Positions 7,119 to 56,255 of a stretch of DNA of 64,000 nucleotides are shown here, in pieces. Numbering within the stretch: the first letter of the stretch is position 1; each line of letters starts with the position of its first letter. The DNA comes from Deltaproteobacteria bacterium (GTDB lineage: Bacteria > Myxococcota > Kuafuiibacteriia > Kuafuiibacteriales > Kuafuiibacteriaceae), in contig JADJPE010000005.1 in NCBI GenBank assembly GCA_016713425.1, forward strand, positions 3,086,143-3,150,142, written 5' to 3'. The position numbers were made by a program, and so were the translations under genes. The notes beneath the pieces were generated by a model that saw only the letters and a list, made by a program, of their open reading frames with translations, ran no database searches and was not told the DNA's origin.

Positions 7119-8990
7119 TCACCGGTGCCGAGCACTTCCGCAACCCGGACGATGACCTACGCGGCGGCATCGAGCTCGTTGGGGACGAAACCACGCTTGC
7201 GAGTCGCAGCCAACGTGGGCATGAGCTTGTCCGTCAGCGCAGCGAGGAAGTCCGAAATTCGACGAAGACACGAACAAACGAGCGCCATTGCCGAGGCCTT
7301 CCGTGACGGCATGAAACGAGCTCATGGCGCGTTGTGTGCGCGCAAGCGGTTTCGGAATACAAACCACGAAAACCGGAGTCGGGAATCCTGCATCGCCTCG
7401 TCTCGACCCACTTTGACGAGTTTGTCGAAAGTTTTGAGGACCCAGATTCCCCCGAGTCCGGGTTGCCGACATTTGTCCGCAAAGAGTTTGAACGATTCCT
7501 CGACTGCGGGATCTTGGAACGCGGGTTCGTCCTTCTTTTCTGCGACCGATGCCAGCGTGAGCATGCTGTGGCCTTTTCGTGCAAGGGGCGGGCGATTTGT
7601 CCGAGCTGCGGTGCACGACGGATGCAGGAGACGGCGGCCCATCTCGTCGATGACGTGCTGCCCGATGTCGCGCTGCGGCAATACGTGCTGAGCCCGCCGT
7701 TCGAACTGCGCGGTCTTCTCGCGTGCAAACGAGAAGTCTTGGCGAAGATGGTGAACTTTTTTCGTTGGGGCGATCTTTGAGCAACTGACCGACTGGGCTC
7801 GATGTCAGGGTCTCACAGGACCGAAATGCGGCGCAGTCACCTTCATTCAGCGATTCACGAAGACCCTGAACATCTCACCCCATCTTCATGTGCTCGTTCT
7901 CGACGGAGTCTTTGCGAACGAAGAAGAGGGTCCCCGTTTCGTCGAATGCCCAGCCCCAACGAATCGAGACCTTCTTTCGTTGGCCCAAAGGGTCTTCAAG
8001 AAGATGGAGAAATTTCTCGCGAAGAGCGGATATCTCCGAAGCGAGTCGGACGCTCTTGAGGAAGCATCGCTGACACCCGTGGAGCGCTGGTATGTGCGGG
8101 GCCTCGCGGAGCCATCGATGCTGTCGCCAAGTCGCATCGTGGACGTCAAGTCCACGGCGATCGAGTGTGGTGGATTCAGTGTTCATGCTCAGGTTCGTGT
8201 TGCCCAAGGCGATCGACGAGGACGAGAAAGGCTCTGCCTATATGCGGCCCGTCCGCCTTTCGCCGAAGGTCAACTTCGCATGACCGATGATGGCCGAGTT
8301 CGGCTGACGCTTCGTCGTCCAGCGAAGAACGGCCAGGGTGCGATCGTTCTATCACCGGTTCCAGTTTCTGAGGCGCCTCGCGTGGCTCGTTCCTCCCCGG
8401 CGCAGCATCAGGTTCGCTATGCGGGAGTTCTGGCCTCGGCCTCGAAAGTGCGGCGCGCGATTGTCCCAAGGCCCGCACCGGTTCTTCAGCTCGCCTTCCC
8501 GATCGAGAACATGAGGCCTCGGGTTCAGAAACATCGCATGTCGTGGGCCAAACTGTTGGCCCGCGTCTATTCGATTGATGGAGAGCGCTGCTTGAGCTGT
8601 GGCGGCCCACTTAGGCCGATCGGTGCGGTGACTGAATCGAGTCACGTCGCGCAGACTCTCGGTCGGATGCGACGGCAGCGATGCGCTCGAGATCCCCTCA
8701 GCTCGCCCTCGATCTCTGATCGACTCTACAAACCAACCCAAGGTCCCACGCTCCGGGCCTCGGCGCTTCTTGTCCGCGCGGTCGCACTGCTCGTCCGCTG
8801 GGGAGAGGTACGTCTGAACGCTGCGCGCAGGCTACGGAACTCAACGGCAGTCCCGTCTTGTGGCGTTCCAAACCGGCCAGACTGCGCGCAACATGTGACT
8901 CGTCGCACACCTGCGTCGGTTCTCCGACTGCTCCGGGCATGGTATCGACGACGCATAGTGAGTCGAAGCCGATTGATTGCCCTATCGGCC
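7119..8990 (+). mobile_element. IS91-like (HUH/Y2 rolling-circle) element, copy A; 5'-truncated, tnpA frameshifted
   Basis: Shares the 3' terminus ...gattgattgccctatcggcc (ends 8990) with ten other copies. Homology starts at tcaccggtg (7119), the same point as copy I. Confidence 0.6.
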
Positions 8991-9146
8991 TCCACGTGTG
9001 GGAGGCCCCGCTCGCGCGCGCGACGAAGGACCTCGACTTCCTCGGCCGGCTCGACAACTCGCTCGAGAACCTCGAACGCGTGGTCCGCGAGGTCTGCTCC
9101 GCCGACGTGGAGCCCGACGGCATGGTGTTCGACCCGGCCACGGTGA
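7334..9146 (+). pseudogene. IS91-family transposase TnpA, frameshifted (extra T near 7765)
   Basis: ORF 7334..7780 has the Zn-binding N-terminus (CDRCQREH...FSCKGRAICPSCGARRMQ). ORF 7890..9146 has the HUH-like HLHVLVLDGVF, LCLYAARPP...RLTLRRP, RYAGVLAS and WAKLLARVYSIDGERCLSCGG, then runs through the element end. Confidence 0.6.
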
Positions 9147-9379
9147 AGACCGAGCGCATCAAGGAGGACGCGGACTACGAGGGCGTGCGCGTCCGCTTCG
9201 TCGGCCTGCTCGGCAAGGCGCGCATCACGATGCAGCTCGACGTCGGGTTCGGCGACGTCGTCACGCCTGGCGCGGTGGACATCACGTTGGATCGTTCACA
9301 AGGAGGACCTGCTGGCCGCCGAGCCTCGCATACGACGCCGCCAATCGACGATGCCCGGAGCCGACGACACAACTCCTAA
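8991..9379 (+). pseudogene. 5'-truncated gene fragment, possibly an AbiEii-type nucleotidyltransferase
   Basis: Begins immediately after the IS91-like terminus; ...VRVRFVGLLGKARITMQLDVGFGDVV... recalled as AbiEii-like. Weak. Confidence 0.2.
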
Positions 9380-9672
9380 CCAACTAGAACTAGAGATTTC
9401 AAGTAGTTAAAGAGGTGACGCAGTATGAAGCCCCGCTCAAAGGCGGACGGGCCGCATACTGGCAGAGCCTTCTCGTCCTCGTCGATCGCCTTGGGCAACA
9501 CGAACCTGAGCATGAAGAGAAGCTCTCCTCCTGGCTTGAGCGCCCTCCATGCCCTACGCCGATAGCACAGCAGGACTTCACGGGCCGAGGTCGATGTGGC
9601 TCGCGGTATTGCCCGTCGCGAGAGGCCACAATGGGGTCGCGATGGGCCAATGGGTTGCCTATGGATAAGGTC

Positions 9673-19504: not shown

Positions 19505-20800
19505 GGGCGGGCGATTTGTCCGAGCTGCGGTGCACGACGGATGCAGGAGACGGCGGCCCATCTCGTCGATGACGTGCTGCCCGATGTCGCGCTGCGGCAA
19601 TACGTGCTGAGCCCGCCGTTCGAACTGCGCGGTCTTCTCGCGTGCAAACGAGAAGTCTTGGCGAAGATGGTGAACTTTTTCGTTCGGGCGATCTTTGAGC
19701 AACTGACCGACTGGGCTCGATGTCAGGGTCTCACAGGACCGAAATGCGGCGCAGTCACCTTCATTCAGCGATTCACGAAGACCCTGAACATCTCACCCCA
19801 TCTTCATGTGCTCGTTCTCGACGGAGTCTTTGCGAACGAAGAAGAGGGTCCCCGTTTCGTCGAATGCCCAGCCCCAACGAATCGAGACCTTCTTTCGTTG
19901 GCCCAAAGGGTCTTCAAGAAGATGGAGAAATTTCTCGCGAAGAGCGGATATCTCCGAAGCGAGTCGGACGCTCTTGAGGAAGCATCGCTGACACCCGTGG
20001 AGCGCTGGTATGTGCGGGGCCTCGCGGAGCCATCGATGCTGTCGCCAAGTCGCATCGTGGACGTCAAGTCCACGGCGATCGAGTGTGGTGGATTCAGTGT
20101 TCATGCTCAGGTTCGTGTTGCCCAAGGCGATCGACGAGGACGAGAAAGGCTCTGCCTATATGCGGCCCGTCCGCCTTTCGCCGAAGGTCAACTTCGCATG
20201 ACCGATGATGGCCGAGTTCGGCTGACGCTTCGTCGTCCAGCGAAGAACGGCCAGGGTGCGATCGTTCTATCACCGGTTCAGTTTCTGAGGCGCCTCGCGT
20301 GGCTCGTTCCTCCCCGGCGCAGCATCAGGTTCGCTATGCGGGAGTTCTGGCCTCGGCCTCGAAAGTGCGGCGCGCGATTGTCCCAAGGCCCGCACCGGTT
20401 CTTCAGCTCGCCTTCCCGATCGAGAACATGAGGCCTCGGGTTCAGAAACATCGCATGTCGTGGGCCAAACTGTTGGCCCGCGTCTATTCGATTGATGGAG
20501 AGCGCTGCTTGAGCTGTGGCGGCCCACTTAGGCCGATCGGTGCGGTGACTGAATCGAGTCACGTCGCGCAGACTCTCGGTCGGATGCGACGGCAGCGATG
20601 CGCTCGAGATCCCCTCAGCTCGCCCTCGATCTCTGATCGACTCTACAAACCAACCCAAGGTCCCACGCTCCGGGCCTCGGCGCTTCTTGTCCGCGCGGTC
20701 GCACTGCTCGTCCGCTGGGGGGAGAGGTACGTCTGAACGCTGCGCGCAGGCTACGGAACTCAACGGCAGTCCCGTCTTGTGGCGTTCCAAACCGGCCAGA
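19505..20800 (+). pseudogene. IS91-family tnpA distal portion (copy C), separated from its 5' part by IS110
   Basis: ORF 19541..20431 and following frames match the consensus TnpA distal region. Confidence 0.55.
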
Positions 20801-20909
20801 CTGCGCGCAACATGTGACTCGTCGCACACCTGCGTCGGTTCTCCGACTGCTCCGGGCATGGTATCGACGACGCATAGTGAGTCGAAGCCGATTGATTGCC
20901 CTATCGGCC

Positions 20910-23093: not shown

Positions 23094-23987
23094 CTATCCA
23101 CGCGCTTTGATTTGGGCTTTGAAGATCTTGGCGATCTCGGAGGGTTCAACAACGTATCGATGTGCGCACAGATCGCAGTTCACGACGACCTCGCGGTTGG
23201 CTTCGATCATCTCCGCAAGGTCGGTCGGCCCGAGCATGCGAATCGAGCCCAACACCTTCTCCATGGAGCATCGGCACTGCCAGCCGAGGGGCACGGCGTC
23301 GATGGTTCGCGCATCCGGGAACATCGCCTCGACCAGCTCGTGCGCTGCGAGCTCGCGGCTTAGATGGCGCGTCAGCTGGCCATCGCGGAGATTTGTTCGA
23401 ATGCGTTCGAGGCGCTCGACGTCTCCATCTGGAAGCGCCTGCGTGAGGACGCCGGCCGCCCGAATCACAACACCTTCCGCGTCGGCCATGACGTCGGCCG
23501 ATAGGGCGGTGGGGATTTGGTCGGATTGATTCAAAAAGAACTCGAGGTCTTCGTCCACTTCGCCCTTCGTGATGGGCGTGGTGCTCTGCGTGTATTCCGC
23601 GGCGCGGTCGGACATTCGAATGACGGAGATCTCTCCTGGTTTCAGCGCGGGGGTCAGTGACCGACGGCTCAAGAGCGTCTCGCCCTCGAACAATGGAAAA
23701 CTGAGGTTGGGGTTCTTGGCGAAACCACGCAGATGGCCGTCGTGGGTGGCGTCGGCGAAGAGCTGGCGCAAGGTTGTGCGCATGACGAACTGGACGCTCG
23801 TCGTGCCGTTCCTCTTGGCGGTTGTGCTCATGAGCCCGACCGAGGTCAGGAGCCTTCCCAGCGCAACCGCGGATGTCACTTGGAGTTTGTGCGCCTCTTG
23901 CGCCGCACGGCAGGTCTGGGTGGTGACGGCGACGGCGACTTCGAGCCGTGACTGGGGGAGGGTGCATCGGATGCAGAGGTCTTCCAC
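23094..23987 (-). CDS. hslO: Hsp33 redox-regulated chaperone
   Basis: 297 aa; C-terminal zinc centre WQCRCS...VNCDLCAHRY. Confidence 0.85.
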   Translation of the reverse strand: MEDLCIRCTLPQSRLEVAVAVTTQTCRAAQEAHKLQVTSAVALGRLLTSVGLMSTTAKRNGTTSVQFVMRTTLRQLFADATHDGHLRGFAKNPNLSFPLFEGETLLSRRSLTPALKPGEISVIRMSDRAAEYTQSTTPITKGEVDEDLEFFLNQSDQIPTALSADVMADAEGVVIRAAGVLTQALPDGDVERLERIRTNLRDGQLTRHLSRELAAHELVEAMFPDARTIDAVPLGWQCRCSMEKVLGSIRMLGPTDLAEMIEANREVVVNCDLCAHRYVVEPSEIAKIFKAQIKARG

Positions 23988-24640: not shown

Positions 24641-24955
24641 GCGTAAACGCCGGCCCTTTTGGGGCCTGGCGATGACGGCCTTTCAGGGCCAGCGACGAGG
24701 CCTTTCGGGCCGCGACGGTCCGACGGGTCCGACTTGTTCATTGACGGCTGGACTTCGCGCGACCTACCAGCAGAATCTCGTGAATGGGCAGATCCTCGTG
24801 GACTTGCAGTTCTTGGACGATCAGCAGGCTCCGCTCGACGTAAGGACAAGGAGCCAGTTCGGTGCTTCCCTCTGAGTTCAAACCAAACGCAAGCCCCGCG
24901 CTGAGCGTCGTTCGTTATGCCGACAGCGCAATACCCACCGCGCGCGGCCGGTTCC

Positions 24956-25684
24956 ATCCGCGGCGAGACCGATCCTGAGAAGCTGGTCGACCGCAGGCGT
25001 GGTCGTCTCAAGGCCACGCGAGCTGAGCTCGTCGAAGCCCTGCGCGGTCGCGTCACTCGGAATCATCGCTTTCTTCTCGAGCTTCACTTGAACCAGATCG
25101 ACGCCCTCGACAAGTCGATCGAGAGCGTGGAGAAGGAGGTCGGCGAGCTGCTGGAGCCCTTTCGAGCTGCCGCCGAGCTCCTGAAGACGATCCCAGGCGT
25201 CAGCGATACCGTCGCCGATGTGATCATCGCGGAGATCGGGGTCGACATGTTGCGCTTTCCAACTGCAGGGCATCTCGTTTCCTGGGCAGGTCTCTGCCCT
25301 GGCAATGATGAGAGCGCCGGCAAACGTCGCTCCACTCGCGTTCGAAAAGGATCTCCGTGGCTCAAGACAACGTTGGTCCAAGCGGCATGGGCGGGATCCC
25401 GTACGCGCGGAACGTACCTGCGTACACAGTTCCTGCGCCTCAAGACTCGCCGCGGTCCTAAGAAGGCCATCATGGCGGTCGCCGCATCGATGCTGACCGC
25501 CATCTATTACATGCTCCGAGACTCCGTCCCCTACCGCGATCTTGGCCCCGACTACTTCGACCGCATGGACACGACCAAGGTGACCACCCGCCTGGTTCGC
25601 AGGCTCGAGAGCCTCGGGTTCCATGTCGAGCTCAAGGAGGCATCCTAAGCGAAAACGATCGTCATCAGCCGTGGTTTCGTTCTA
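24956..25684 (+). mobile_element. IS110-family element, 5'-truncated copy 3 (3' ~730 bp only)
   Basis: Homology begins at ...IRGETDPEKL (transposase residue ~180); right junction identical to copies 1 and 2. Confidence 0.7.
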
Positions 25685-27088
25685 GGGGCGGGCGATTTGT
25701 CCGAGCTGCGGTGCACGACGGATGCAGGAGACGGCGGCCCATCTCGTCGATGACGTGCTGCCCGATGTCGCGCTGCGGCAATACGTGCTGAGCCCGCCGT
25801 TCGAACTGCGCGGTCTTCTCGCGTGCAAACGAGAAGTCTTGGCGAAGATGGTGAACTTTTTCGTTCGGGCGATCTTTGAGCAACTGACCGACTGGGCTCG
25901 ATGTCAGGGTCTCACAGGACCGAAATGCGGCGCAGTCACCTTCATTCAGCGATTCACGAAGACCCTGAACATCTCACCCCATCTTCATGTGCTCGTTCTC
26001 GACGGAGTCTTTGCGAACGAAGAAGAGGGTCCCCGTTTCGTCGAATGCCCAGCCCCAACGAATCGAGACCTTCTTTCGTTGGCCCAAAGGGTCTTCAAGA
26101 AGATGGAGAAATTTCTCGCGAAGAGCGGATATCTCCGAAGCGAGTCGGACGCTCTTGAGGAAGCATCGCTGACACCCGTGGAGCGCTGGTATGTGCGGGG
26201 CCTCGCGGAGCCATCGATGCTGTCGCCAAGTCGCATCGTGGACGTCAAGTCCACGGCGATCGAGTGTGGTGGATTCAGTGTTCATGCTCAGGTTCGTGTT
26301 GCCCAAGGCGATCGACGAGGACGAGAAAGGCTCTGCCTATATGCGGCCCGTCCGCCTTTCGCCGAAGGTCAACTTCGCATGACCGATGATGGCCGAGTTC
26401 GGCTGACGCTTCGTCGTCCAGCGAAGAACGGCCAGGGTGCGATCGTTCTATCACCGGTTCAGTTTCTGAGGCGCCTCGCGTGGCTCGTTCCTCCCCGGCG
26501 CAGCATCAGGTTCGCTATGCGGGAGTTCTGGCCTCGGCCTCGAAAGTGCGGCGCGCGATTGTCCCAAGGCCCGCACCGGTTCTTCAGCTCGCCTTCCCGA
26601 TCGAGAACATGAGGCCTCGGGTTCAGAAACATCGCATGTCGTGGGCCAAACTGTTGGCCCGCGTCTATTCGATTGATGGAGAGCGCTGCTTGAGCTGTGG
26701 CGGCCCACTTAGGCCGATCGGTGCGGTGACTGAATCGAGTCACGTCGCGCAGACTCTCGGTCGGATGCGACGGCAGCGATGCGCTCGAGATCCCCTCAGC
26801 TCGCCCTCGATCTCTGATCGACTCTACAAACCAACCCAAGGTCCCACGCTCCGGGCCTCGGCGCTTCTTGTCCGCGCGGTCGCACTGCTCGTCCGCTGGG
26901 GAGAGGTACGTCTGAACGCTGCGCGCAGGCTACGGAACTCAACGGCAGTCCCGTCTTGTGGCGTTCCAAACCGGCCAGACTGCGCGCAACATGTGACTCG
27001 TCGCACACCTGCGTCGGTTCTCCGACTGCTCCGGGCATGGTATCGACGACGCATAGTGAGTCGAAGCCGATTGATTGCCCTATCGGCC
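25685..27088 (+). mobile_element. IS91-like distal portion, copy D, downstream of the truncated IS110
   Basis: tnpA from GRAICPSCGARRMQ (ORF 25722..26612 onward); terminus at 27088. Confidence 0.6.
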
Positions 27089-28282: not shown

Positions 28283-28577
28283 CTTTGTTGGCGGCCGGCC
28301 GAGGTCTCGCTCTCGGCCGAGAATGACCCCGCGGGACGGTGATGCTCGCTGCACTCTGAGAGACGGCACGTCCGCCCGTTTGAGCGCTCTGCGACTATGA
28401 CAGATGCCCGGCCAGCATGAAGCCGACGGCGGCTCCGACGCTCAAGCCCAGGATCACGCCCGATACGAACCATCGCATGGTGTGTGCGGGGACCGCGGCT
28501 GTCGTGGGCGACGACACCATCGTCGATTCGGATGACGTCGACAAGGCGGCGGACGTGGCCGACACGGGTGGCCTGGA

Positions 28578-30064
28578 ACTGCGGGATCTTGGAACGCGGG
28601 TTCGTCCTTCTTTTCTGCGACCGATGCCAGCGTGAGCATGCTGTGGCCTTTTCGTGCAAGGGGCGGGCGATTTGTCCGAGCTGCGGTGCACGACGGATGC
28701 AGGAGACGGCGGCCCATCTCGTCGATGACGTGCTGCCCGATGTCGCGCTGCGGCAATACGTGCTGAGCCCGCCGTTCGAACTGCGCGGTCTTCTCGCGTG
28801 CAAACGAGAAGTCTTGGCGAAGATGGTGAACTTTTTCGTTGGGGCGATCTTTGAGCAACTGACCGACTGGGCTCGATGTCAGGGTCTCACAGGACCGAAA
28901 TGCGGCGCAGTCACCTTCATTCAGCGATTCACGAAGACCCTGAACATCTCACCCCATCTTCATGTGCTCGTTCTCGACGGAGTCTTTGCGAACGAAGAAG
29001 AGGGTCCCCGTTTCGTCGAATGCCCAGCCCCAACGAATCGAGACCTTCTTTCGTTGGCCCAAAGGGTCTTCAAGAAGATGGAGAAATTTCTCGCGAAGAG
29101 CGGATATCTCCGAAGCGAGTCGGACGCTCTTGAGGAAGCATCGCTGACACCCGTGGAGCGCTGGTATGTGCGGGGCCTCGCGGAGCCATCGATGCTGTCG
29201 CCAAGTCGCATCGTGGACGTCAAGTCCACGGCGATCGAGTGTGGTGGATTCAGTGTTCATGCTCAGGTTCGTGTTGCCCAAGGCGATCGACGAGGACGAG
29301 AAAGGCTCTGCCTATATGCGGCCCGTCCGCCTTTCGCCGAAGGTCAACTTCGCATGACCGATGATGGCCGAGTTCGGCTGACGCTTCGTCGTCCAGCGAA
29401 GAACGGCCAGGGTGCGATCGTTCTATCACCGGTTCAGTTTCTGAGGCGCCTCGCGTGGCTCGTTCCTCCCCGGCGCAGCATCAGGTTCGCTATGCGGGAG
29501 TTCTGGCCTCGGCCTCGAAAGTGCGGCGCGCGATTGTCCCAAGGCCCGCACCGGTTCTTCAGCTCGCCTTCCCGATCGAGAACATGAGGCCTCGGGTTCA
29601 GAAACATCGCATGTCGTGGGCCAAACTGTTGGCCCGCGTCTATTCGATTGATGGAGAGCGCTGCTTGAGCTGTGGCGGCCCACTTAGGCCGATCGGTGCG
29701 GTGACTGAATCGAGTCACGTCGCGCAGACTCTCGGTCGGATGCGACGGCAGCGATGCGCTCGAGATCCCCTCAGCTCGCCCTCGATCTCTGATCGACTCT
29801 ACAAACCAACCCAAGGTCCCACGCTCCGGGCCTCGGCGCTTCTTGTCCGCGCGGTCGCACTGCTCGTCCGCTGGGGGAGAGGTACGTCTGAACGCTGCGC
29901 GCAGGCTACGGAACTCAACGGCAGTCCCGTCTTGTGGCGTTCCAAACCGGCCAGACTGCGCGCAACATGTGACTCGTCGCACACCTGCGTCGGTTCTCCG
30001 ACTGCTCCGGGCATGGTATCGACGACGCATAGTGAGTCGAAGCCGATTGATTGCCCTATCGGCC
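28578..30064 (+). mobile_element. IS91-like element, copy E; 5'-truncated within the tnpA Zn-binding region
   Basis: Homology begins at ...CGILERGF; ORF 28484..29587 and following; terminus at 30064. Confidence 0.6.
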
Positions 30065-34081: not shown

Positions 34082-34891
34082 TTCATGCTCAGGTTCGTGT
34101 TGCCCAAGGCGATCGACGAGGACGAGAAAGGCTCTGCCTATATGCGGCCCGTCCGCCTTTCGCCGAAGGTCAACTTCGCATGACCGATGATGGCCGAGTT
34201 CGGCTGACGCTTCGTCGTCCAGCGAAGAACGGCCAGGGTGCGATCGTTCTATCACCGGTTCAGTTTCTGAGGCGCCTCGCGTGGCTCGTTCCTCCCCCGG
34301 CGCAGCATCAGGTTCGCTATGCGGGAGTTCTGGCCTCGGCCTCGAAAGTGCGGCGCGCGATTGTCCCAAGGCCCGCACCGGTTCTTCAGCTCGCCTTCCC
34401 GATCGAGAACATGAGGCCTCGGGTTCAGAAACATCGCATGTCGTGGGCCAAACTGTTGGCCCGCGTCTATTCGATTGATGGAGAGCGCTGCTTGAGCTGT
34501 GGCGGCCCACTTAGGCCGATCGGTGCGGTGACTGAATCGAGTCACGTCGCGCAGACTCTCGGTCGGATGCGACGGCAGCGATGCGCTCGAGATCCCCTCA
34601 GCTCGCCCTCGATCTCTGATCGACTCTACAAACCAACCCAAGGTCCCACGCTCCGGGCCTCGGCGCTTCTTGTCCGCGCGGTCGCACTGCTCGTCCGCTG
34701 GGGGAGAGGTACGTCTGAACGCTGCGCGCAGGCTACGGAACTCAACGGCAGTCCCGTCTTGTGGCGTTCCAAACCGGCCAGACTGCGCGCAACATGTGAC
34801 TCGTCGCACACCTGCGTCGGTTCTCCGACTGCTCCGGGCATGGTATCGACGACGCATAGTGAGTCGAAGCCGATTGATTGCCCTATCGGCC
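34082..34891 (+). mobile_element. IS91-like 3' fragment, copy F
   Basis: Homology from ttcatgctcagg; ORF 34180..; terminus at 34891, followed by tccacg as at copy A. Confidence 0.6.
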
Positions 34892-35647
34892 TCCACGCCG
34901 ACCGCGCCGTCCTTGCGCGTCCTCCGATACGCTTCGCGCAGGAGGTCCACATCGATGAGGTGGGCGAGCGTCGTCATCACCATCTGCGGCGCTTGCCTCG
35001 CCAGTTTCGCTGTCCGCTCGAGTTTCGTTGTGACGCTGATTGGACTCGATGTTCCTGGCATCTTTCCTCCGAGCGGTCCCGTGACCCGGCGCCTCTTTCC
35101 CTCAGCCGGGTCCCCTGGGGAGAGTTCCCCGGCTTCCTCGGTACAGTGAGGCGCTCCGACTCCCGACCATCCCTCCCGCCGCGCTTCGTTTCCTTCGCTT
35201 GGCGGTACCTGCGTTGTGCTCGTCATTTGCTCCCGCGGGCCCGAGCACTGGCGCCCCGCGAGCCTGGACCCCTTGTTCCGACGGTCCGAGCCGGGTCGAA
35301 ACAGGAGACGGTCGGGCCTCCCAGGTTCCTGGGGATCCCATTTCCATGCGTATGCCGTGCTCTCAGACCCCGGCGGGACCTCGGCGCCTCGCCCAAACGG
35401 CGCTCCGGTGTCGCCGCCGTGCCAAACAACGCCGACGGCTCCCGCGACCCATAGATTTCGAGGCTCAATCACACAGCCTTCGCACTCCCTGTGTACGCTT
35501 CGCAGCCGAGGTCGCCCTCCGGCCACGCAACACTCGGTTCCGGTGGGTGGCTAGCCCTTGCCGGGCGGGGCTCCTCCCCGCTGGGGTCCGACGAGAAGTT
35601 TCAGCCTGTCATCTGCATCCCCTTCTCCCAGGCTTCGCCTGGCGCAC
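34892..35647 (-). mobile_element. Putative group II intron 5' segment, truncated within the start of its reverse-transcriptase ORF
   Basis: Minus strand begins GTGCGCC (GUGYG-like) at 35647; ~670 nt downstream an ORF starts ...LIDVDLLREAYRRTRKDGAVGV (RT domain-0-like), cut by copy F at 34891. Confidence 0.45.
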
Positions 35648-35665
35648 TGATTGCCCTATCGGCCT
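35648..35665 (+). repeat. Isolated terminal 18 bp of the IS91-like 3' end, abutting the putative intron 5' end
   Basis: ctgattgccctatcggcc; the same juxtaposition occurs inverted at 54023..54040. Confidence 0.5.
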
Positions 35666-37449: not shown

Positions 37450-37530
37450 CCCATCGTCGGCGTGAGCGTCCGGTCAGGCGCCGAGAAAGGTCGGGACCGC
37501 CGATCGGGAGACGGGCGATGATTCCGGTCC

Positions 37531-37908: not shown

Positions 37909-37910
37909 CG

Positions 37911-38312: not shown

Positions 38313-38349
38313 TGTGATCCAAGTTCTTTATCCCTTCCGTCGTCTCGCC

Positions 38350-39966
38350 AGCCTCTGAACCCACAGTTCTCGAGCTCCTCCGTTCGCTTCTCGACTCCGG
38401 TGCGAAGGAGGATGTGGTCGATTTGTTCGCCCAGCTCGTGGCGCGGAACGAAGCTCTGGAGCTTGCGCTCGCGAAGAAGCTCCGAGCGTTCAAGACGACG
38501 GAGAAGGTCTCCCCAACCAGCTGAAGCTTCTGCTCGAGACCGTATCCAGCAACGCCCTCTCCGAGACGCCGGCCAACGCGGAGGGCGAGTCCGAGGCAGA
38601 GGATACGACGGCAGGCGAGACGGCGGCGGAACAGCTCGGCAAGATGGTCGAGAACGAGCGCAATCGGCGGGCGACCGAGCAGACGCAGCCGCCACCGGCA
38701 CGGCCTCGCCGGACGCCATTTCCTCCGAACCTACCGCGCGAAGACAACCCCATCTCAGTGCCTGACGCTGAACGGCCATGTCCGAAGTGCGGGCTCGAGC
38801 GGCGATGTGCAGGCCACGACGTGAGCGAGGTCCTCGAGCTCGTGCCCGCGCGTGTGATCGTGCGCCGGGACCTCCGGGAGAAGCTCGCCTGTGACGCCTG
38901 CGATGCGCCGAACTTCAGCCGCGCGCCGGTCGGTGATCGCGTCGTCCAGGGGGGCCAGTACGGACCCCGTCTCGTCGCTCAACTGCTCGTCGACAAGTAC
39001 CGAGACGGCCTCCCTCTCCACCGCCAGCGGGAACGATATCGACGGATGAGTGTCGACCTCTCGGTCTCGACGCTGGCGGACCAGGTTGCGTACGGCGCCG
39101 AGCTCCTGCAGCCGCTCTGGCGCGCAGCCCAGATCGCGGCACTCAAAGCGAATGTCCTGCATCTCGACGGCACGTCCCTCGCGTTCTTCACTGGCGAGGG
39201 CAAGGATGCGAAGCGTCACAAGAAGCTGGGCGCGCTGTGGGGCTTCGTCGTTGACCAGGACGTTGCGCTCTATCTGTTCGCGCCCTCCGGGCACGCGACA
39301 TTCGCGGACGGGCATACCATCGGACCCGCCGACTTCCTACGCTTGCGCTCCGGCTACACGGTCGCCGATGCCGCAACTGTCTTCGATCAGGCGTTCGCGC
39401 GCGAAGACATCATCGAGTGCGGGTGCAACATGCACGCGCGTCGCTACTTCGTGAAGGCCCTCGACGGCGGAGAGGCACGCGCCGCGATCGCGATCGATGC
39501 CTACCAGGCGCTGTACGGAATCGAGAAGGAAGCGAGAGACCTCGAGCCAAGAGAACGCCTTCGACTTCGGCGTGAACGCAGCGCGCCGATCTTCAACAAG
39601 CTTCTCGAGTGGGTCGAGTCCATCAAAGACGACGAGCCTCCTTCACTGCGCTTCGGTCGAGCGCTCAACTATTTCTCGAACCAGCAAGTGCCGCTGAGTC
39701 AGTTCCTCACGGATGGCCGCGTCCCCATCGATAACGGCGTTGTTGAGCGTCTGCACGTGCGCGCCGCGCTGACGCGGAAAAACTTCCTCTTCGCCGGATC
39801 AGAGCGCGGCGCTCAGAGCGCCGCCATCATCTTCTCGCTCTTGGGCTCGTGCGCGCTCTGCGGCATCGACCCCGTCGAGTATCTCGCCACCGTCATGCCC
39901 ATTCTCGCGCGAGGCGTCATCGAGAAGGACGTCATCGACCTCCTGCCCCGCAATCTTCCACTCTGA
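38350..39966 (+). pseudogene. IS66 TnpC transposase with a frameshift near 38515
   Basis: N-terminal coiled-coil frame stops at ...KVSPTS*; the next frame continues through CPKCG, LPLHRQ, DDE core and RKNFLFAGSERGA (ORF 38644..39966). Confidence 0.7.
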
Positions 39967-40050
39967 CTGAGCGTCGCGAACTCCCGGGCCGCCAGGCTCA
40001 GGGGACGAATCTTGTCCGGCCTCGAGGAAGAATCCGGCGGTCGCCCGGAC

Positions 40051-40156
40051 ACTCACTCCCCGTCGTCTTTTGATTCTTCGAAGTCACGGACCGGAATCAT
40101 CGTCCGTCTCCCGATCGGTGGTCCCGACCTTTCTCGGCGCCCGACCGGACGCTCAC
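40051..40156 (-). repeat. Inverted ~100-bp copy of the IS66 left end abutting the right end of the full element
   Basis: Reverse complement of 40051..40156 matches the left end at 37462..37561, including the first ~30 bp of tnpA. Confidence 0.6.
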
Positions 40157-40326
40157 CTGCGCGCAGGCTACGGAACTCAACGGCAGTCCCGTCTTGTGGC
40201 GTTCCAAACCGGCCAGACTGCGCGCAACATGTGACTCGTCGCACACCTGCGTCGGTTCTCCGACTGCTCCGGGCATGGTATCGACGACGCATAGTGAGTC
40301 GAAGCCGATTGATTGCCCTATCGGCC
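40157..40326 (+). mobile_element. IS91-like 3'-terminal 170-bp fragment, copy G
   Basis: Begins ctgcgcgcaggctacggaactcaacgg, ends ...gattgattgccctatcggcc at 40326. Confidence 0.6.
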
Positions 40327-40825: not shown

Positions 40826-40851
40826 GGTGACCCTGCCGTAGCGCAAGGATC

Positions 40852-44624: not shown

Positions 44625-45351
44625 GGATGGATGTTACCCATTTCTGAATCGGTCCCACCCGAAAAGTCGGAGCACGAAAGCCTCGTTCCGTTCACCGGGA
44701 GGTGCTTGAGGTCCCGGTCCTCGAACTTCAGGCGGACTGCCCAGCGAGCTCATAGGTGGACGTAGGTCGATCGGGCGAGATGCGCCCTACCGGACGCCTC
44801 CCATGCACACGCAGCCGATGATGTCGGCGCTGTCCCTTCGCACCGAAGCCGTCTGGCAGCGGGCGATCGATGAAGCGCGCGGGGCGTACCGGTGCCGAGC
44901 ACTTCCGCAACCCGGACGATGACCTACGCGGCGGCATCGAGCTCGTTGGGGACGAAACCACGCTTGCGAGTCGCAGCCAACGTGGGCATGAGCTTGTCCG
45001 TCAGCGCAGCGAGGAAGTCCGAAATTCGACGAAGACACGAACAAACGAGCGCCATTGCCGAGGCCTTCCGTGACGGCATGAAACGAGCTCATGGCGCGTT
45101 GTGTGCGCGCAAGCGGTTTCCGAATACAAACCACGAAAACCGGAGTCGGGAATCCTGCATTGCCTCGTCTCGACCCACTTTGACGAGTTTGTCGAAAGTT
45201 TTGAGGACCCAGATTCCCCCGAGTCCGGGTTGCCGACATTTGTCCGCAAAGAGTTTGAACGATTCCTCGACTGCGGGATCTTGGAACGCGGGTTCGTCCT
45301 TCTTTTCTGCGACCGATGCCAGCGTGAGCATGCTGTGGCCTTTTCGTGCAA

Positions 45352-46844
45352 GTTCGCCATGTCCGGACGGACACCCCGTGGCATGAAACTGGTAGGATGC
45401 GCCGCGTTGGTGGTGGCACAGAGATCGGCGTTTCCTTGGTGCTTCAGCCCGTGTGCAAGTTGGATCCGGAGCTCTACGAGCACCCCGTACTGCGCCATGG
45501 AGTCCGCCTATGCGGCTTCGGGAGCGCGCGTTCTAGATTTCGATCACGAGAGCTCCACGCCATCACCGACAGGAGTGTGTGGTGGAAGTTCTTCATGCCC
45601 GTTGCGCGGGGCTCGACGTTCACAAGGACACGGTCGTGGCCTGCATTCGAATCGCATCCAAAGGAACAGCGACGCAAGATGTGCGAACTTTCCAGACGAC
45701 GACTTCGCAGTTGTTGGCGTTGTCTGACTGGCTGAGCGAACAAGAGGTGACACATGTCGCGATGGAGGCGACGGGCGTCTACTGGAAGCCGGTTTGGCAC
45801 ATCCTCGAGGAGTCGTTCGAGCTCGTCCTCGCGAACGCCGCCCATATCAAGAACGTTCCCGGGCGCAAGACCGACGTGAACGACGCGATGTGGATCTCGG
45901 ATTTGCTCGCACATGGTCTGATCCGAGGCAGCTTCGTTCCGGAGGCATCCATCCATGAGCTACGCGCGCTCACGCGAACGCGCAAGCAGCTCGTCCGTGA
46001 GAAAGCCCAGCACATGCAGCGGATTCAGAAGACGCTCGAGGATGCGAACATCAAGCTCGCATCGGTGATCACGGACATTCTCGGAATGACGGGACGCGGG
46101 ATCCTCGAAGCTCTCATCCGCGGCGAGACCGATCCTGAGAAGCTGGTCGACCGCAGGCGTGGTCGTCTCAAGGCCACGCGAGCTGAGCTCGTCGAAGCCC
46201 TGCGCGGTCGCGTCACTCGGAATCATCGCTTTCTTCTCGAGCTTCACTTGAACCAGATCGACGCCCTCGACAAGTCGATCGAGAGCGTGGAGAAGGAGGT
46301 CGGCGAGCTGCTGGAGCCCTTTCGAGCTGCCGCCGAGCTCCTGAAGACGATCCCAGGCGTCAGCGATACCGTCGCCGATGTGATCATCGCGGAGATCGGG
46401 GTCGACATGTTGCGCTTTCCAACTGCAGGGCATCTCGTTTCCTGGGCAGGTCTCTGCCCTGGCAATGATGAGAGCGCCGGCAAACGTCGCTCCACTCGCG
46501 TTCGAAAAGGATCTCCGTGGCTCAAGACAACGTTGGTCCAAGCGGCATGGGCGGGATCCCGTACGCGCGGAACGTACCTGCGTACACAGTTCCTGCGCCT
46601 CAAGACTCGCCGCGGTCCTAAGAAGGCCATCATGGCGGTCGCCGCATCGATGCTGACCGCCATCTATTACATGCTCCGAGACTCCGTCCCCTACCGCGAT
46701 CTTGGCCCCGACTACTTCGACCGCATGGACACGACCAAGGTGACCACCCGCCTGGTTCGCAGGCTCGAGAGCCTCGGGTTCCATGTCGAGCTCAAGGAGG
46801 CATCCTAAGCGAAAACGATCGTCATCAGCCGTGGTTTCGTTCTA
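45352..46844 (+). mobile_element. IS110-family insertion sequence, copy 2, at the identical site within IS91-like tnpA
   Basis: Same junctions as copy 1 (offset 27341 bp); apparently identical. Confidence 0.8.
45579..46808 (+). CDS. IS110-family transposase
   Basis: 409-aa ORF identical in translation to 18238..19467. Confidence 0.9.
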   Translation: MVEVLHARCAGLDVHKDTVVACIRIASKGTATQDVRTFQTTTSQLLALSDWLSEQEVTHVAMEATGVYWKPVWHILEESFELVLANAAHIKNVPGRKTDVNDAMWISDLLAHGLIRGSFVPEASIHELRALTRTRKQLVREKAQHMQRIQKTLEDANIKLASVITDILGMTGRGILEALIRGETDPEKLVDRRRGRLKATRAELVEALRGRVTRNHRFLLELHLNQIDALDKSIESVEKEVGELLEPFRAAAELLKTIPGVSDTVADVIIAEIGVDMLRFPTAGHLVSWAGLCPGNDESAGKRRSTRVRKGSPWLKTTLVQAAWAGSRTRGTYLRTQFLRLKTRRGPKKAIMAVAASMLTAIYYMLRDSVPYRDLGPDYFDRMDTTKVTTRLVRRLESLGFHVELKEAS

Positions 46845-46845
46845 G

Positions 46846-48273
46846 GGGCGGGCGATTTGTCCGAGCTGCGGTGCACGACGGATGCAGGAGACGGCGGCCC
46901 ATCTCGTCGATGACGTGCTGCCCGATGTCGCGCTGCGGCAATACGTGCTGAGCCCGCCGTTCGAACTGCGCGGTCTTCTCGCGTGCAAACGAGAAGTCTT
47001 GGCGAAGATGGTGAACTTTTTCGTTCGGGCGATCTTTGAGCAACTGACCGACTGGGCTCGATGTCAGGGTCTCACAGGACCGAAATGCGGCGCAGTCACC
47101 TTCATTCAGCGATTCACGAAGACCCTGAACATCTCACCCCATCTTCATGTGCTCGTTCTCGACGGAGTCTTTGCGAACGAAGAAGAGGGTCCCCGTTTCG
47201 TCGAATGCCCAGCCCCAACGAATCGAGACCTTCTTTCGTTGCCCCAAAGGGTCTTCAAGAAGATGGAGAAATTTCTCGCGAAGAGCGGATATCTCCGAAG
47301 CGAGTCGGACGCTCTTGAGGAAGCATCGCTGACACCCGTGGAGCGCTGGTATGTGCGGGGCCTCGCGGAGCCATCGATGCTGTCGCCAAGTCGCATCGTG
47401 GACGTCAAGTCCACGGCGATCGAGTGTGGTGGATTCAGTGTTCATGCTCAGGTTCGTGTTGCCCAAGGCGATCGACGAGGACGAGAAAGGCTCTGCCTAT
47501 ATGCGGCCCGTCCGCCTTTCGCCGAAGGTCAACTTCGCATGACCGATGATGGCCGAGTTCGGCTGACGCTTCGTCGTCCAGCGAAGAACGGCCAGGGTGC
47601 GATCGTTCTATCACCGGTTCAGTTTCTGAGGCGCCTCGCGTGGCTCGTTCCTCCCCCGGCGCAGCATCAGGTTCGCTATGCGGGAGTTCTGGCCTCGGCC
47701 TCGAAAGTGCGGCGCGCGATTGTTCCAAGGCCCGCACCAGTTCTTCAGCTCGCCTTCCCGATCGAGAACATGAGGCCTCGGGTTCAGAAACATCGCATGT
47801 CGTGGGCCAAACTGTTGGCCCGCGTCTATTCGATTGATGGAGAGCGCTGCTTGAGCTGTGGCGGCCCACTTAGGCCGATCGGTGCGGTGACTGAATCGAG
47901 TCACGTCGCGCAGACTCTCGGTCGGATGCGACGGCAGCGATGCGCTCGAGATCCCCTCAGCTCGCCCTCGATCTCTGATCGACTCTACAAACCAACCCAA
48001 GGTCCCACGCTCCGGGCCTCGGCGCTTCTTGTCCGCGCGGTCGCACTGCTCGTCCGCTGGGGGAGAGGTACGTCTGAACGCTGCGCGCAGGCTACGGAAC
48101 TCAACGGCAGTCCCGTCTTGTGGCGTTCCAAACCGGCCAGACTGCGCGCAACATGTGACTCGTCGCACACCTGCGTCGGTTCTCCGACTGCTCCGGGCAT
48201 GGTATCGACGACGCATAGTGAGTCGAAGCCGATTGATTGCCCTATCGGCCTATCGGCCTCGGGGCCCTCATGA
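46846..48273 (+). pseudogene. IS91-family tnpA distal portion (copy H), longest uninterrupted frame
   Basis: ORF 46882..48273 (463 aa) covers the HUH and Y2 regions and reads through the element terminus; 5' part (45101..45351) is separated by IS110. Confidence 0.6.
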
Positions 48274-50105: not shown

Positions 50106-50180
50106 GGCCCACACCGGGTTCATGGACCGGAATCATCGTCCGTCTCCCGATCGGGGGTCCCGACCTTTCTCGGCGCCTGA
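50106..50180 (-). repeat. Solo IS66 left-end fragment (~70 bp)
   Basis: Reverse complement matches GTGAGCGTCCGGTCAGGCGCCGAGAAAGGTCGGGACC... of the IS66 left end. Confidence 0.55.
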
Positions 50181-50385
50181 CCGGACGCTCACGAGAAGCT
50201 CGGCTTTCGGCTCTTGGGAGAACAGCGCGACCATTTCTTTCGCTTCGACCAGTGGTGGCAGCCGACCCACCCGAACCAAGCCTACGCCGCCGCCGACGAC
50301 AACGAGAAGAGACCGACGTGAAGACGCCGCCGAAGAAAGCCTCCAAGCCGAGCGCCAAGGTCGGCCTCGGTGCAAGGAGTTTGGG

Positions 50386-51235
50386 TCACCGGTGCCGACC
50401 GCTTCCGCAACCCGGACGAGGACCTACGCGGCGGCATCGACCTCGTTGGGGACGAAACCACGCTTGCGAGTCGCAGCCAACGTGGGCATGAGCTTGTCCG
50501 TCAGCGCAGCGAGGAAGTCCGAAATTCGAAGATCAACTTCGCATGACCGATGATGGCCGAGTTCGGCTGACGCTTCGTCGTCCAGCGAAGAACGGCCAGG
50601 GTGCGGTCGTTCTATCACCGGTTCAGTTTCTGAGACGCCTCGCGTGGCTCGTTCCTCCCCCGGCGCAGCATCAAGTTCGCTACGCGGGCGTTCTGGCCTC
50701 GGCCTCGAAAGTGCGGCGCGCGATTGTCCCAAGGCCCGCACCGGTTCTTCAGCTCGCCTTCCCGATCGAGAACATGAGGCCTCGGGTTCAGAAGCGTCGC
50801 ATGTCGTGGGCCAAACTGTTGGCCCGCGTCTATTCGATTGATGGAGAGCGCTGCTTGAGCTGTGGCGGCCCACTTAGGCCGATCGGTGCGGTGACTGAAT
50901 CGAGTCACGTCGCGCAGACTCTCGGTCGGATGCGACGCCAGCGATGCGCTCGAGATCCCCCTCAGCTCGCCCTCGATCTCTGATCGACTCCACAAACCAA
51001 CCCAAGGTCCCAAGCTCCGGGGCTCGGCGCTTCTTGTCCGCGCGGTCGCACGGCTCGTCTGCCGGGGGAGAGGTACGTCTGAACGCTGCCCGCAGGCTAC
51101 AGAACTCAACGGTAGTCCCGTCTTGTGCCGTTCCAAGCCGGCCAGACTGCGCGCAATATGTGACGCGCCGCACACCTGCGTCGGTTCTCCGACTGCTCCG
51201 GGCATGGTCGAAGCCGATTGATTGCCCTATCGGCC
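50386..51235 (+). mobile_element. IS91-like element, copy I, with a large internal deletion
   Basis: 5' part from tcaccggtg joined at ~50529 to the tnpA distal region (...LRMTDDGRV); 20-bp deletion near the terminus shared with copy K. Confidence 0.6.
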
Positions 51236-51251
51236 TCGTCTGCTGAGGGCT

Positions 51252-51443
51252 GAGGGAGAGGTACGTCTGAACGCTGCGCGCAGGCTGCGGAACTCAACGG
51301 CAGTCCCGTCTTGTGCCGTTCCAAACCGGTCAGACTGCGCGCAAGACGTGACTCGTCGCACACCTGCGTCGGTTCTCCGACTGCTCCGGGCATGGTATCG
51401 ACGACGCATGGTGAGTCGAAGCCGATTGATTGCCCTATCGGCC
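51252..51443 (+). mobile_element. IS91-like 3'-terminal fragment, copy J
   Basis: Terminus at 51443 followed by the same tatcggcc duplication as copy H. Confidence 0.55.
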
Positions 51444-51529
51444 TATCGGCCTTCACCCCCCACGTACTCGGCTTGGCTGAACCTCGTGGAGCGCTTCTTC
51501 GCCCTGCTCTCCGCATGGACTCATTGCAC

Positions 51530-53637: not shown

Positions 53638-54022
53638 TGACGCGGCGTTCAGCAACGGGTTTGTCGTCTAGCGAAGCCGCTCCACCAGGTCCCCGTGGCC
53701 AGCCTCTGTCATGGTCGGAGGACAGTGGCCCTGAAGGTGATCGAGGTCTGTTGGGGCCTGAAGACGGACAGACGACGCGTATGCTTGAAGAACCGCTCAA
53801 GCAAGCGCCCTGCTGACTCCTTCTCTGTCTTCGATTCGATGGCGTCTCGGACTTCTTCATTTAGATGCTCCTCTCCTGGCGGACGACAGGTATCGTGCCG
53901 TCGTTCTGGCTCCACACACTACGATCGCCATGATCCGTCCCGCTAGTGTGGCGACGTGTCGGCACGTCTCCCGTCGCAAGAACCGATCGACAGGACGATC
54001 ACACACTCGTGCTCAGCGACAA

Positions 54023-54101
54023 GGCCGATAGGGCAATCAGTGCGCCAGGCGAAGCCTGGGAGAAGGGGATGCAGATGACAGGCTGAAACTTCTCGTCGGA
54101 C
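54023..54101 (+). mobile_element. Inverted IS91-like terminal 17 bp followed by ~62 bp matching the putative group II intron 5' end
   Basis: ggccgatagggcaatca + gtgcgccaggcgaagcctggg... matches the minus strand of 35586..35665, then diverges. Confidence 0.4.
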
Positions 54102-54383
54102 CACCTTGGCGCAACTGGCGAATACAGCCACCGCTTCAAGGGCGAAGACGGTGCCTCTTTCGGGCTGCAAGCAGGCGTGGTCGTTCCAGTGATACTTCTC
54201 TTTCGCGATCTCGGGTTGGGCCGCATCCATTGATGGACATTATTGTGCAACCGTTGGGAAGAGTGTGCTCATGGACAGCATCGATTCAACCTGGTTTTCG
54301 AAGCATTTGCGGGGACGAGAAGAGCTTGCCGACCTGACTGTCGTCGAGATCACCCTCGACCGTGTACGGTCCTTGTTGGCCGG

Positions 54384-56255
54384 CATGCACACGCAGCCGA
54401 TGATGTCGGCGCTGTCCCTTCGCACCGAAGCCGTCTGGCAGCGGGCGATCGATGAAGCGCGCGGGGCGTACCGGTGCCGAGCACTTCCGCAACCCGGACG
54501 ATGACCTACGCGGCGGCATCGAGCTCGTTGGGGACGAAACCACGCTTGCGAGTCGCAGCCAACGTGGGCATGAGCTTGTCCGTCAGCGCAGCGAGGAAGT
54601 CCGAAATTCGACGAAGACACGAACAAACGAGCGCCATTGCCGAGGCCTTCCGTGACGGCATGAAACGAGCTCATGGCGCGTTGTGTGCGCGCAAGCGGTT
54701 TCGGAATACAAACCACGAAAACCGGAGTCGGGAATCCTGCATCGCCTCGTCTCGACCCACTTTGACGAGTTTGTCGAAAGCTTTGAGGACCCCGATTGCC
54801 CTGAGTCCGGGTTGCCGACATTCGTCCGTAAAGAATTCGAAGGATTCCTCGACTGCGGGATCTTGGAACGCGGTTTCGTCCTTCTCTTCTGCGACCGATG
54901 CCAGCGTGAGCATGCTCTGGCCTTTTCGTGCAAGGGGCGGGCGATTTGTCCGAGCTGCGGTGCACGACGGATGCAGGAGACGGCGGCCCATCTCGTCGAT
55001 GGCGTGCTGCCCGATGTCGCGCTGCGGCAATACGTGCTGAGCCCGCCGTTCGAACTGCGCGGTCTTCTCGCGTGCAAACGACAGGTCTTGGCGAAGATGG
55101 TGAGCTTCTTCGTTCGGGCGATCTTTGAGCAACTGACCGGCTGGGCTCGATGCCAGGATCTCCCAGAACCGAAATGCGGCGCCGTCACCTTCATTCAGCG
55201 ATTCACGAAGACCCTGAACATCTCACCCCATCTTCACGTGCTCGTTCTCGACGGAGTCTTCGCGAACGAAGAAGAGGGTCCCCGATTCGTCGAATGCCCA
55301 GCCCCAACGAATCGAGACCTTCTCTCGTTGGCTCAAAGCGTTTTCAAGAAGATGGAGAAATTTCTCGCGAAGAGCGGATATCTCCGAAGCGAGTCGGACG
55401 CTCTTGAGGAAGCATCGCTGACACCATTGGAGCGCTGGTATGTGCGCGGCCTCGCGGAGCCATCGATGCTCTCGCCAAGTCGCATCGTGGACGTCAAGTC
55501 CACGGCAAGCAAGGCTCTGCCTATATGCGGCCCGTCCGCCCTTCGCCGAAGATCAACTTCGCATGACTGATGATGGCCGAGTTCTGCTGACGCTTCGTCG
55601 TCCAGCGAAGAACCGCCAGGGTGCGATCGTTCTATCACCGGTTCAGTTTCTGAGACGCCTCGCGTGGCTCGTTCCTCCCCCGGCGCAGCATCAGGTTCGC
55701 TACGCGGGCGTTCTGGCCTCGGCCTCGAAAGTGCGGCGCACGATTGTGCCAAGGCCCGCACCGGCTCTTCAGCTCCCCTTCCCGATCGAGAACATGAGGC
55801 CCCGGGTTCAGAAACGTCGCATGTCGTGGGCCAAACTGTTTGCCCGCGTCTATTCGATTGATGGAGAGCGCTGCTTGTCGTGTGGCGGCCCGCTTAGGGC
55901 GATCGGTGCGGTGACTGAATCGAGTCACGTCGCAGAGACTCTCGGTCGGATGCGACGGCCGCGATGCGCTCGAGATCCCCCTCAGCTCACCCTCGATCTC
56001 TGATCGACTCCACAAACCAACCGAAGGGCCCAAGCTCCGGGGCTCGGCGCTTCTTGTCCGCGCGGTCGCACGGCTCGTCCGCTGGGGGAGAGGTACGTCT
56101 GAACGCTGCCCGCAGGCTACGGAACTCAACGGCAGTCACGTCTTGTGCCGTTCCAAACCGGCCAGGACTGCGCGCAACATGCGACGCGTCGCACACCTGC
56201 GTCGGTTCTCCGACTGCTCCGGGCATGGTCGAAGCCGATTGATTGCCCTATCGGC
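54384..56255 (+). mobile_element. IS91-like element, copy K; divergent subfamily with internal deletions
   Basis: Same left boundary as copy H; ~65-bp internal deletion near 55510 and the 20-bp terminal-region deletion; ORFs 54683..55570 and 55440..56003. Confidence 0.6.

Follow-up and report, generated by a model that had tools for sequence, protein, structure and literature searches.

What leaves a family of insertion sequences (IS) with one constant end and another end that differs from copy to copy? This question is raised by a stretch of 64,000 nucleotides (hereafter the window; positions 3,086,143 to 3,150,142 of contig JADJPE010000005.1) from a 7.3-Mb single-contig metagenome-assembled genome (MAG) of a Deltaproteobacteria bacterium assigned to the Myxococcota. 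An initial annotation had described eleven copies or fragments of an IS91-like element in it, named A to K, which share their terminus on the 3' side of the transposase gene tnpA and begin at no fewer than eight different points; one-ended rolling-circle transposition or later truncation had been named as possible causes. According to our analysis, the element represents a new, distant ISCR-like family whose behaviour agrees with what IS91, ISCR and Helitron elements show or would be expected to show, and its polarity is the expected footprint of a rolling-circle IS, not a new kind of system. As the main source of the shortened copies, we somewhat favour truncation linked to transposition itself.

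As reference, a 1956-bp sequence (R) was rebuilt from copy H minus its nested IS110-family element, and the 5' starts, which are quoted in R coordinates, were mapped by self-BLAST of the window and BLAST with R. The search with the 31-nt terminus GAGTCGAAGCCGATTGATTGCCCTATCGGCC yielded 11 matches with no more than three mismatches (10 on the plus strand, one on the minus strand; chance expectation 0), hence the eleven copies with one common terminus were borne out. To these we add the fragment L and two ori-only mini-copies, m1 and m2, which had been overlooked because only their last 17-18 nt are common with the family, the rest being unlike R. Most of the previously given start positions were reproduced, except that J starts at 51236 instead of 51252, and the eight different starts were seen again, to which D adds a ninth inside its nested IS110. 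The element is approximately 1.87-1.96 kb long in the window family (Table 1). The recent copies A, C, D, E, F, G and H are separated by at most five substitutions and differ mainly by homopolymer indels; the older copies B, I, J, K and L are diverged by 3.5-8%. Elsewhere in the same MAG, more than 30 annotated transposase fragments of the family occur in several clusters, intact 461-aa TnpA proteins are encoded, and the proteins annotated at other loci reveal further truncated copies; in one case (P0138), the part of TnpA that begins at residue 177 is joined in frame to a host protein. The next nearest proteins outside the MAG are only 58% identical, and neither exact-terminus scans of genome and metagenome contig collections nor megablast against plasmids gave a match.

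The polarity of these copies is strict: nine fragments carry the constant end without the opposite one, and none shows the reverse (p = 0.004; counted in the window only). Moreover, the 5' starts recur. Two pairs of copies with unrelated flanks, A/I at R85/87 and F/L at R1147, coincide in their start (p = 1.5e-4), and R85/87, 86 bp inside the element, is thereby a second recurrent start. F, L and B begin exactly at G/TTC of an internal GTTC (two of the seven distinct sites, p = 0.0015 uncorrected); GTTC is also the cleavage site of IS801 and IS1294 at their terminating end, terIS (PMC13181058). Nevertheless, the start points are heterogeneous, comprising the natural or recurrent ends R1 and R85/87, the GTTC sites (F, L, B), self-targeting (J) and an IS66 element (G), while no explanation could be assigned to the starts of C, D and E. 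When microhomology or a common motif was sought at all 5' junctions, none was found that fits every junction. The initial annotation had ascribed the start of G to an IS66 insertion; it indeed adjoins the IS66 terminal repeat, but this IS66 lacks a target duplication. An IS66-like element next to the 5' start of A was considered and rejected, since that region encodes a MarR regulator, and the IS66 right inverted repeat sought downstream of F, which would make F a simple insertion, was not found.

Table 1. Coordinates of the element copies, their parts and related loci (positions in the window; R, 1956-bp reference)
Feature	Position	Strand	Remarks
Copy A	7119..8990	+	start R85/87 (7119/7121); no IS110; flank past ori (C)TCC
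Fragment L	9439..9516	-	R1147-1225, 79 bp; older lineage; internal, without ori end
Copy B	14425..15117	-	R1264-1956; older lineage (96%); start at G/TTC of internal GTTC
Copy C	17865..20909	+	start R405; nested IS110 at 18012-19504
Copy D	24955..27088	+	start inside nested IS110 (24955-25685), then R552-1956
Copy E	28578..30064	+	start R469; begins just past internal CTCG
Copy F	34082..34891	+	start R1147; G/TTC of internal GTTC; flank past ori (C)TCC
Mini-copy m1	35585..35665	+	81 bp; ends ...CTGATTGCCCTATCGGCC(T); CCAGGC/GCCTGG hairpin
Copy G	40157..40326	+	R1787-1956; start adjoins right inverted repeat of IS66 (37462-40156)
Copy H	44802..48250	+	full-length, R1-1956; split by nested IS110-family element at 45353-46845
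terIS-like 5' end	44802..44888	+	in H and K only; hairpin GCCGA-TGATG-TCGGC at 44814-44828
Nested IS110-family element (RNA-guided family)	45353..46845	+	in H, within Zn-finger codons of tnpA
oriIS region of H	47980..48250	+	about 270 bp, non-coding 3' part; conserved CCTATCGGCC at very end
8-bp repeat of H terminus	48251-48258	+	directly after H ori end
Copy I	50386..51235	+	older lineage; start R85/87 (50386/50388), common with A
Copy J	51236..51451	+	R1756-1956; adjoins I ori end directly, at internal CTCG; 7-bp internal duplication; 8-bp terminal repeat at 51444-51451
Mini-copy m2	54022..54102	-	81 bp; 100% identical to m1; flank past ori (C)TTG
Copy K	54384..56256	+	full-length, older, 92-97% identity; 5' end as in H (R1)
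Same-strand loci of related element, contig_22			L003, L004, L005, L009, L012, L013, L040

The affiliation of the element can be judged from its transposase. Both the Zn_Tnp_IS91 (PF14319) and the Y2_Tnp HUH domain (PF04986) match the reconstructed open reading frame (ORF), and the motif HLHVLV is invariant in an alignment of 13 transposase sequences. Among the NCBIfam models, the intact 461-aa TnpA matches ISCR_clade_Ia best with 292 bits, far from the model cut-off of 925, and reaches 106.9 bits with the transpos_IS91 equivalog, below its cut-off of 125. In tblastn searches, TnpA aligned over 95% of its length with the transposases of ISCR1 and ISVsa3/ISCR2 at 33-36% identity, and the pairwise alignment with ISCR2 (34% identity) displays an equal motif order and a single tyrosine in ERLCxY..RP. 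The only invariant tyrosine, Y303 (ERLCLYAARP), is situated in the motif that aligns with ISCR2, in an alignment that leaves out IS91 itself; Y362 is not conserved and is replaced by phenylalanine in ISCR2 and in P0005. On these scores, identities and alignments, the element is therefore classified by its sequence as an ISCR-like member of the IS91 superfamily, neither IS91 proper nor one of the named ISCR elements. The former designation as IS91-like thus holds at the level of the superfamily, but the element is closer to ISCR (292 versus 107 bits). In copy K, a 66-bp in-frame deletion (55506-55508) removes the conserved GFSVHA and is accompanied by a 20-bp deletion in the ori region and a terminus that reads ...GGCT. 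The same 66-bp deletion is seen in protein P0002, which stems from another copy elsewhere in the MAG, hence the variant without GFSVHA appears to have spread as a defective form.

The constant end is located approximately 270 bp past the tnpA stop of the intact ORF; the equivalent region of ISCR1 comprises 232 bp (PMC6218425). In H, it contains the hairpins GTCGG/CCGAC and GGGCA/TGCCC as well as a terminal GCCGAT-N10-ATCGGC, and on its bottom strand, folding is more favourable than for shuffled sequence (z = -3.6). Comparison of the outermost nucleotides (ISCR1 ...TTTATACTTCCTATACCC; ISCR2 ...TTTATTCTTCCTATACG; window element ...GATTGATTGCCCTATCGGCC) revealed that CCTATC plus 4 nt is common to all three, in line with the proposed kinship to ISCR origins. 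The same signature occurs in relatives from four other MAGs (other Myxococcota), whose ends read ...TTATTTCGCCTATCGACCT, ...CCTATCC(C/G)GC or ...GGTTATTC.TCCTATCGGCC, and CCTATCG is invariant across eight aligned ori ends of the clade. In the relatives as well, the 3' ends of the copies coincide to the nucleotide and the 5' starts of homology vary. As judged by motif, hairpins and position past tnpA, the constant end is a genuine oriIS, the origin-side end of a rolling-circle element of the IS91 superfamily, as had been assumed from the start. The 12 outermost nt at ori (GCCCTATCGGCC) also lie inside the Hsp33 coding sequence (...TALSAD...; 23494-23505, minus strand), with about 0.01 such matches expected by chance in the window; this match may have arisen by coincidence or may mark a potential self-like target.

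At the opposite end, a hairpin is placed 12 nt from the 5' end of H and K, as expected of terIS. Only these two copies, which represent two lineages, reach this end; its 86 bp are missing from A and I, and a related family carries a 92-bp extension. Read-through may explain the difference of 86 bp and the extension in the relatives, not the shortened copies. The element has no terminal inverted repeats and possesses two different ends with subterminal hairpins; H and K alone possess both ends, and no direct repeat that would indicate a target-site duplication was found in their flanks. Strings that resemble ter (CCGATGATG) and ori (CCTATATGCGGCC) inside the element, at R1200-1270, were within chance expectation and hence not used.

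A bias towards certain targets at the constant end, a check suggested by the initial annotation, was seen at part of the ori ends. Assuming that the element ends with ...CGGC and scoring H and J at the junction outside their 8-bp repeats, seven of the 13 ori ends are followed by CT[CT][CG] (CTCC, CTCC, CTCG, CTCG, CTTC, CTCC, CTTG; p = 3e-6). The identical TCCACG after A and F, noticed before, was confirmed. The targets of IS91 include CTTG, CTCG and CTTC (Table 2 in PMC13181058), and by their sequence the flanking tetranucleotides appear to be of the same type as this spectrum. The 8-bp terminal duplications in H and J, also as described initially, equal the last 8 nt of the element placed past an ori end. 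Since these repeats follow ori ends and J begins at an internal CTCG directly past the ori end of I, both arrangements fit self-targeting, in which a copy inserts into an existing one where a target-like site is present. A tandem duplication of the terminus, CCTATCCAG/CCTATCCCGC, was also observed on a solo ori fragment of about 115 bp in another MAG and subfamily (L010, 438-456); it comprises 9 bp and parallels the repeats after H and J. Furthermore, 10 of the 11 copies are on one strand (p = 0.012). A related element on contig_22 (1.35 Mb) of MAG CBDCWQ01 is similarly arranged, all seven fetched loci being on one strand and six of them within about 160 kb. This clustering parallels the window, a hint that insertion may be local or strand-specific (replication-linked).

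How, then, could the trailing end become so variable? By analogy with IS91 and Helraiser, the HUH transposase would nick the bottom strand exactly at the oriIS end and stay covalently bound to the nicked 5' end, thus the ori end would be copied precisely each time and placed beside a target of the CT[CT][CG] type. The trailing end would be set only by the point where the reaction stops, normally at the terIS hairpin end (R1) or at R85/87. Frequent earlier stops at internal ter-like GTTC sites or elsewhere would leave copies without their 5' part, dead on arrival and as short as 81 bp. Some of the shortened copies would have originated otherwise, through insertion of one copy into another (J after I; the 8-bp stubs) or through another IS (G and IS66), and later ori-adjacent or 5'-side deletions would have scrambled several flanks.

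The 9:0 polarity, the near-identity of the recent copies and the recurrent starts together favour this premature termination, and it is from them that we infer truncation during transposition. One-ended transposition, as proposed initially, is known for IS91, for which only ori is essential (PMC13181058), and the asymmetry that it predicts is real. However, the documented IS91 events read through and extend past terIS, whereas the copies in the window are shortened; hence premature termination or a deletion anchored at ori is the relevant process. For the former there is a precedent in Helraiser, with which experiments showed that the initiating end is essential and that the terminating end gives truncations and read-through; premature truncations at internal ter-like tetranucleotides and insertions beside or into older truncated copies were reported as well (PMC4778049). 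There is also evidence that truncated units may move as such, namely the near-identical recent copies, the P0138 fusion, the Helraiser precedent and the identical m1 and m2, whose boundaries both coincide and whose flanks are unrelated on either side. A further-reaching version, in which most new insertions would be 5'-truncated primary products that stop at GTTC-like or arbitrary sites and insert in a strand-biased, local and partly self-targeted manner, is put forward tentatively, as a possibility we would not yet bet on.

Several observations weigh against premature termination. Most internal starts (C, D, E, A/I) lack a shared cleavage motif, the GTTC result was obtained post hoc, and at six of the 13 ori ends (B, C, D, E, G, K) no target-like tetranucleotide follows. 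Since the MAG is built from long reads, consensus polishing could have made the copies look more alike than they are. Furthermore, the flanks of C and D are non-contiguous, which excludes simple insertions: to the left of C lies the N-terminal part of a cut RCC1-like gene, to its right a PD40-peptidase gene without its C-terminus, both convergently cut, and the ori end of D cuts pepA at about codon 100, the missing 100 codons being absent from the other side of D. Hence, deletions or ori-adjacent rearrangements also shaped the array, although flank contiguity by itself cannot separate insertion from deletion models.

These flanks speak for the strongest competing explanation, which we regard as less probable but worth serious attention: full-length insertion first, followed by in-place 5' deletion together with adjacent host DNA, made polar by an ori-anchored process. 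Template switches or illegitimate joining in the course of displacement synthesis primed from ori would be examples, comparable to events at nick sites in rolling-circle plasmids. The host genes that are cut at ori ends agree with this, as do the many starts without a common cleavage motif, and deletions at microhomologies are indeed present inside I and K; in I, about 1 kb (R232-1228) was lost at CGAAG, in addition to a 20-bp ori-region deletion like that in K. When a second pepA was sought among the annotated proteins of the MAG, the only match was the window fragment itself; the fragment is therefore the disrupted resident gene, its capture as a duplicate is not supported, and this also suits deletion. 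However, deletion would have to hit the same nucleotide twice in each of the pairs A/I and F/L and to yield two identical 81-bp units with unrelated flanks. It would also have to account for the truncation that has already affected six of the seven recent, near-identical copies, and starts at G/TTC are unexpected if deletions are random. Later truncation, the second option of the initial annotation, thus finds support in the flanks of C and D, but the coincident starts and identical mini-copies oppose it.

General decay in an IS graveyard, through IS66 and IS110 insertions, recombination and random deletion without any connection to rolling-circle polarity, is rather unlikely. The region does hold several IS66, IS110 and rve-type elements, G adjoins an IS66 terminal repeat without target duplication, the ori end of E cuts into the interior of another IS66 copy (30065-30849) and a solo IS66 end is found near I. 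Yet G is the one copy whose 5' junction clearly coincides with the end of another IS, random loss should affect both ends equally and not in a ratio of 9:0, and the target-like tetranucleotides at the ori flanks are left unaccounted for. Slightly less probable still are one-ended units of the ISCR style, in which copies without ter read through and capture upstream host DNA and stop inside the next upstream copy, so that every truncated copy would represent the distal end of such a captured unit. Rolling-circle transposable units of ISCR2 have been described (PMC11239352), and the layout in the window, i.e. head-to-tail copies on one strand with 1.5-5 kb of host DNA between them, each bounded by an ori end and a truncated start, is reminiscent of such units; the same layout recurs on the minus strand from B to L around sbcDC, and same-strand clusters exist in the related MAG. 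But, no host segment is duplicated within the window, the MAG proteome lacks a second pepA, which leaves capture unsupported, and each junction between host DNA and a truncated start would still need a separate origin. Mis-assembly of this repeat-rich region, as the long-read, single-contig nature of the MAG, the homopolymer indels between copies and the two frameshifts in pepA might suggest, is a very improbable source of the pattern, because repeat mis-joins swap the flanks of intact repeats and are not expected to create nine unique internal junctions with flanks of their own, and because polarity, terminal duplication and sharp ori ends recur in independent MAGs and proteins from other loci of this MAG display more truncated copies.

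Termination-linked truncation also has to be seen against known systems. With ISCR1 and ISCR2 (= ISVsa3), the window element shares the order of Zn finger, HxH, GxSxHA, ERLCxY..RP with a single tyrosine, and LAxLVP, an oriIS 230-270 bp past the stop that ends with TT.AT...CCTAT(A/C) plus 2-4 nt, and a poorly fixed 5' boundary, truncated copies (delta-ISCR2) being common in the literature. It differs from them by a sequence identity of only about 34% and a score of 292 bits versus the cut-off of 925 of the named models, by its host, a Myxococcota-type MAG instead of a gamma-proteobacterial resistance region, by a hairpin-bearing 5' end common to two lineages, and by many copies per genome, with a recent burst among them; no captured resistance or other cargo gene could be shown. 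Like IS91, IS801 and IS1294, it encodes an HUH rolling-circle transposase with a Zn-binding N-terminus and lacks terminal inverted repeats; its ori and ter ends differ from each other and contain subterminal palindromes, and a target tetranucleotide of these families' kind (CTTG/GTTC/CTCG types) adjoins seven of the 13 ori ends. Unlike the IS91 family, it scores below the equivalog cut-off, has a single tyrosine at the aligned catalytic motif and lacks orf121. Helitrons such as Helraiser resemble it in their strict initiating and loose terminating end, but they are eukaryotic, have a Rep-helicase fusion and 5'-TC...CTRR-3' ends, and exhibit no homology at the sequence level tested.

The movement of resistance genes is commonly attributed to ISCR elements, while their transposition, terminating end and target choice are largely inferred; their transposition has never been shown experimentally (PMC6218425). 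The family described here offers a sharp oriIS, conserved in several genomes of Myxococcota, together with a candidate terIS, alternative and internal stop points that recur, IS91-like tetranucleotides and an 81-bp ori-only unit that has apparently moved. If the truncated copies are primary products, the window would document, in nature, how an ISCR relative initiates, terminates and chooses its targets, and the 461-aa TnpA, the 270-bp ori region, the ter hairpin and the 81-bp mini-element would form a set of testable parts. The value thus lies in a compact natural data set, combined with parts for assays, on how rolling-circle IS stop.

The finding furthermore accounts for several damaged host genes in the window, i.e. 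the truncated pepA and PD40 peptidase, which are cut at ori ends, and the RCC1-like gene, which is cut at the 5' start of C. The remaining pepA sequence (M17 leucyl aminopeptidase, 27089-28340) lacks about 100 N-terminal codons and contains two frameshifts, which may be long-read errors or pseudogene decay, but has kept its native stop. In the closest relatives, the genes next to pepA are not homologous to the window genes. The sbcDC operon (minus strand, 9439-15117) is situated between the old minus-strand copies B and L, with the ori end of B about 47 bp upstream of sbcD and the 5' start of L just downstream of sbcC; fragment L, which shares its start with F, has a flank different from that of F. 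The order of ori end, host DNA and truncated start at sbcDC is as in the plus-strand array.

The nested IS110-family element occupies the same site, ...TTTTCGTGCAAG/GGGCGGG, in H, C and D, and these are its only sites in the window, all of them inside ISCR-like copies. The three insertions may go back to separate events or to a single interrupted master copy. Other mobile elements are known targets of IS110-family members, for example of IS4321/IS5075 in the ends of Tn21, and the element in the window shares this habit by its identical position in three copies of a mobile element. Its right end (GGTTTCGTTCTAG) mimics the target, and two strings in its 5' untranslated region, GTGCAAGTT (~45453-45461) and CGTTCTAG (~45527-45534), match the two junctions and look like candidate bridge-RNA guides; an Rfam search of the nested element yielded no bridge-RNA family and only a spurious snoRNA match. 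Among the other elements, the IS66 at 37462-40156, which lacks a target duplication, is bounded by 100-bp terminal inverted repeats and contains its end motif once more further inside (CCGGACACTCAC at 40056), and a solo 73-bp fragment of an IS66 right end (50120-50193) lies 193 bp upstream of copy I. The IS cluster at the left edge (1647-4278) contains a transposase ORF of the rve type (DDE integrase core; 2327-3673, minus strand), next to which lies an IS66-like end (3970-4276; 78% identity with the left end of the IS66 that starts at 37462).

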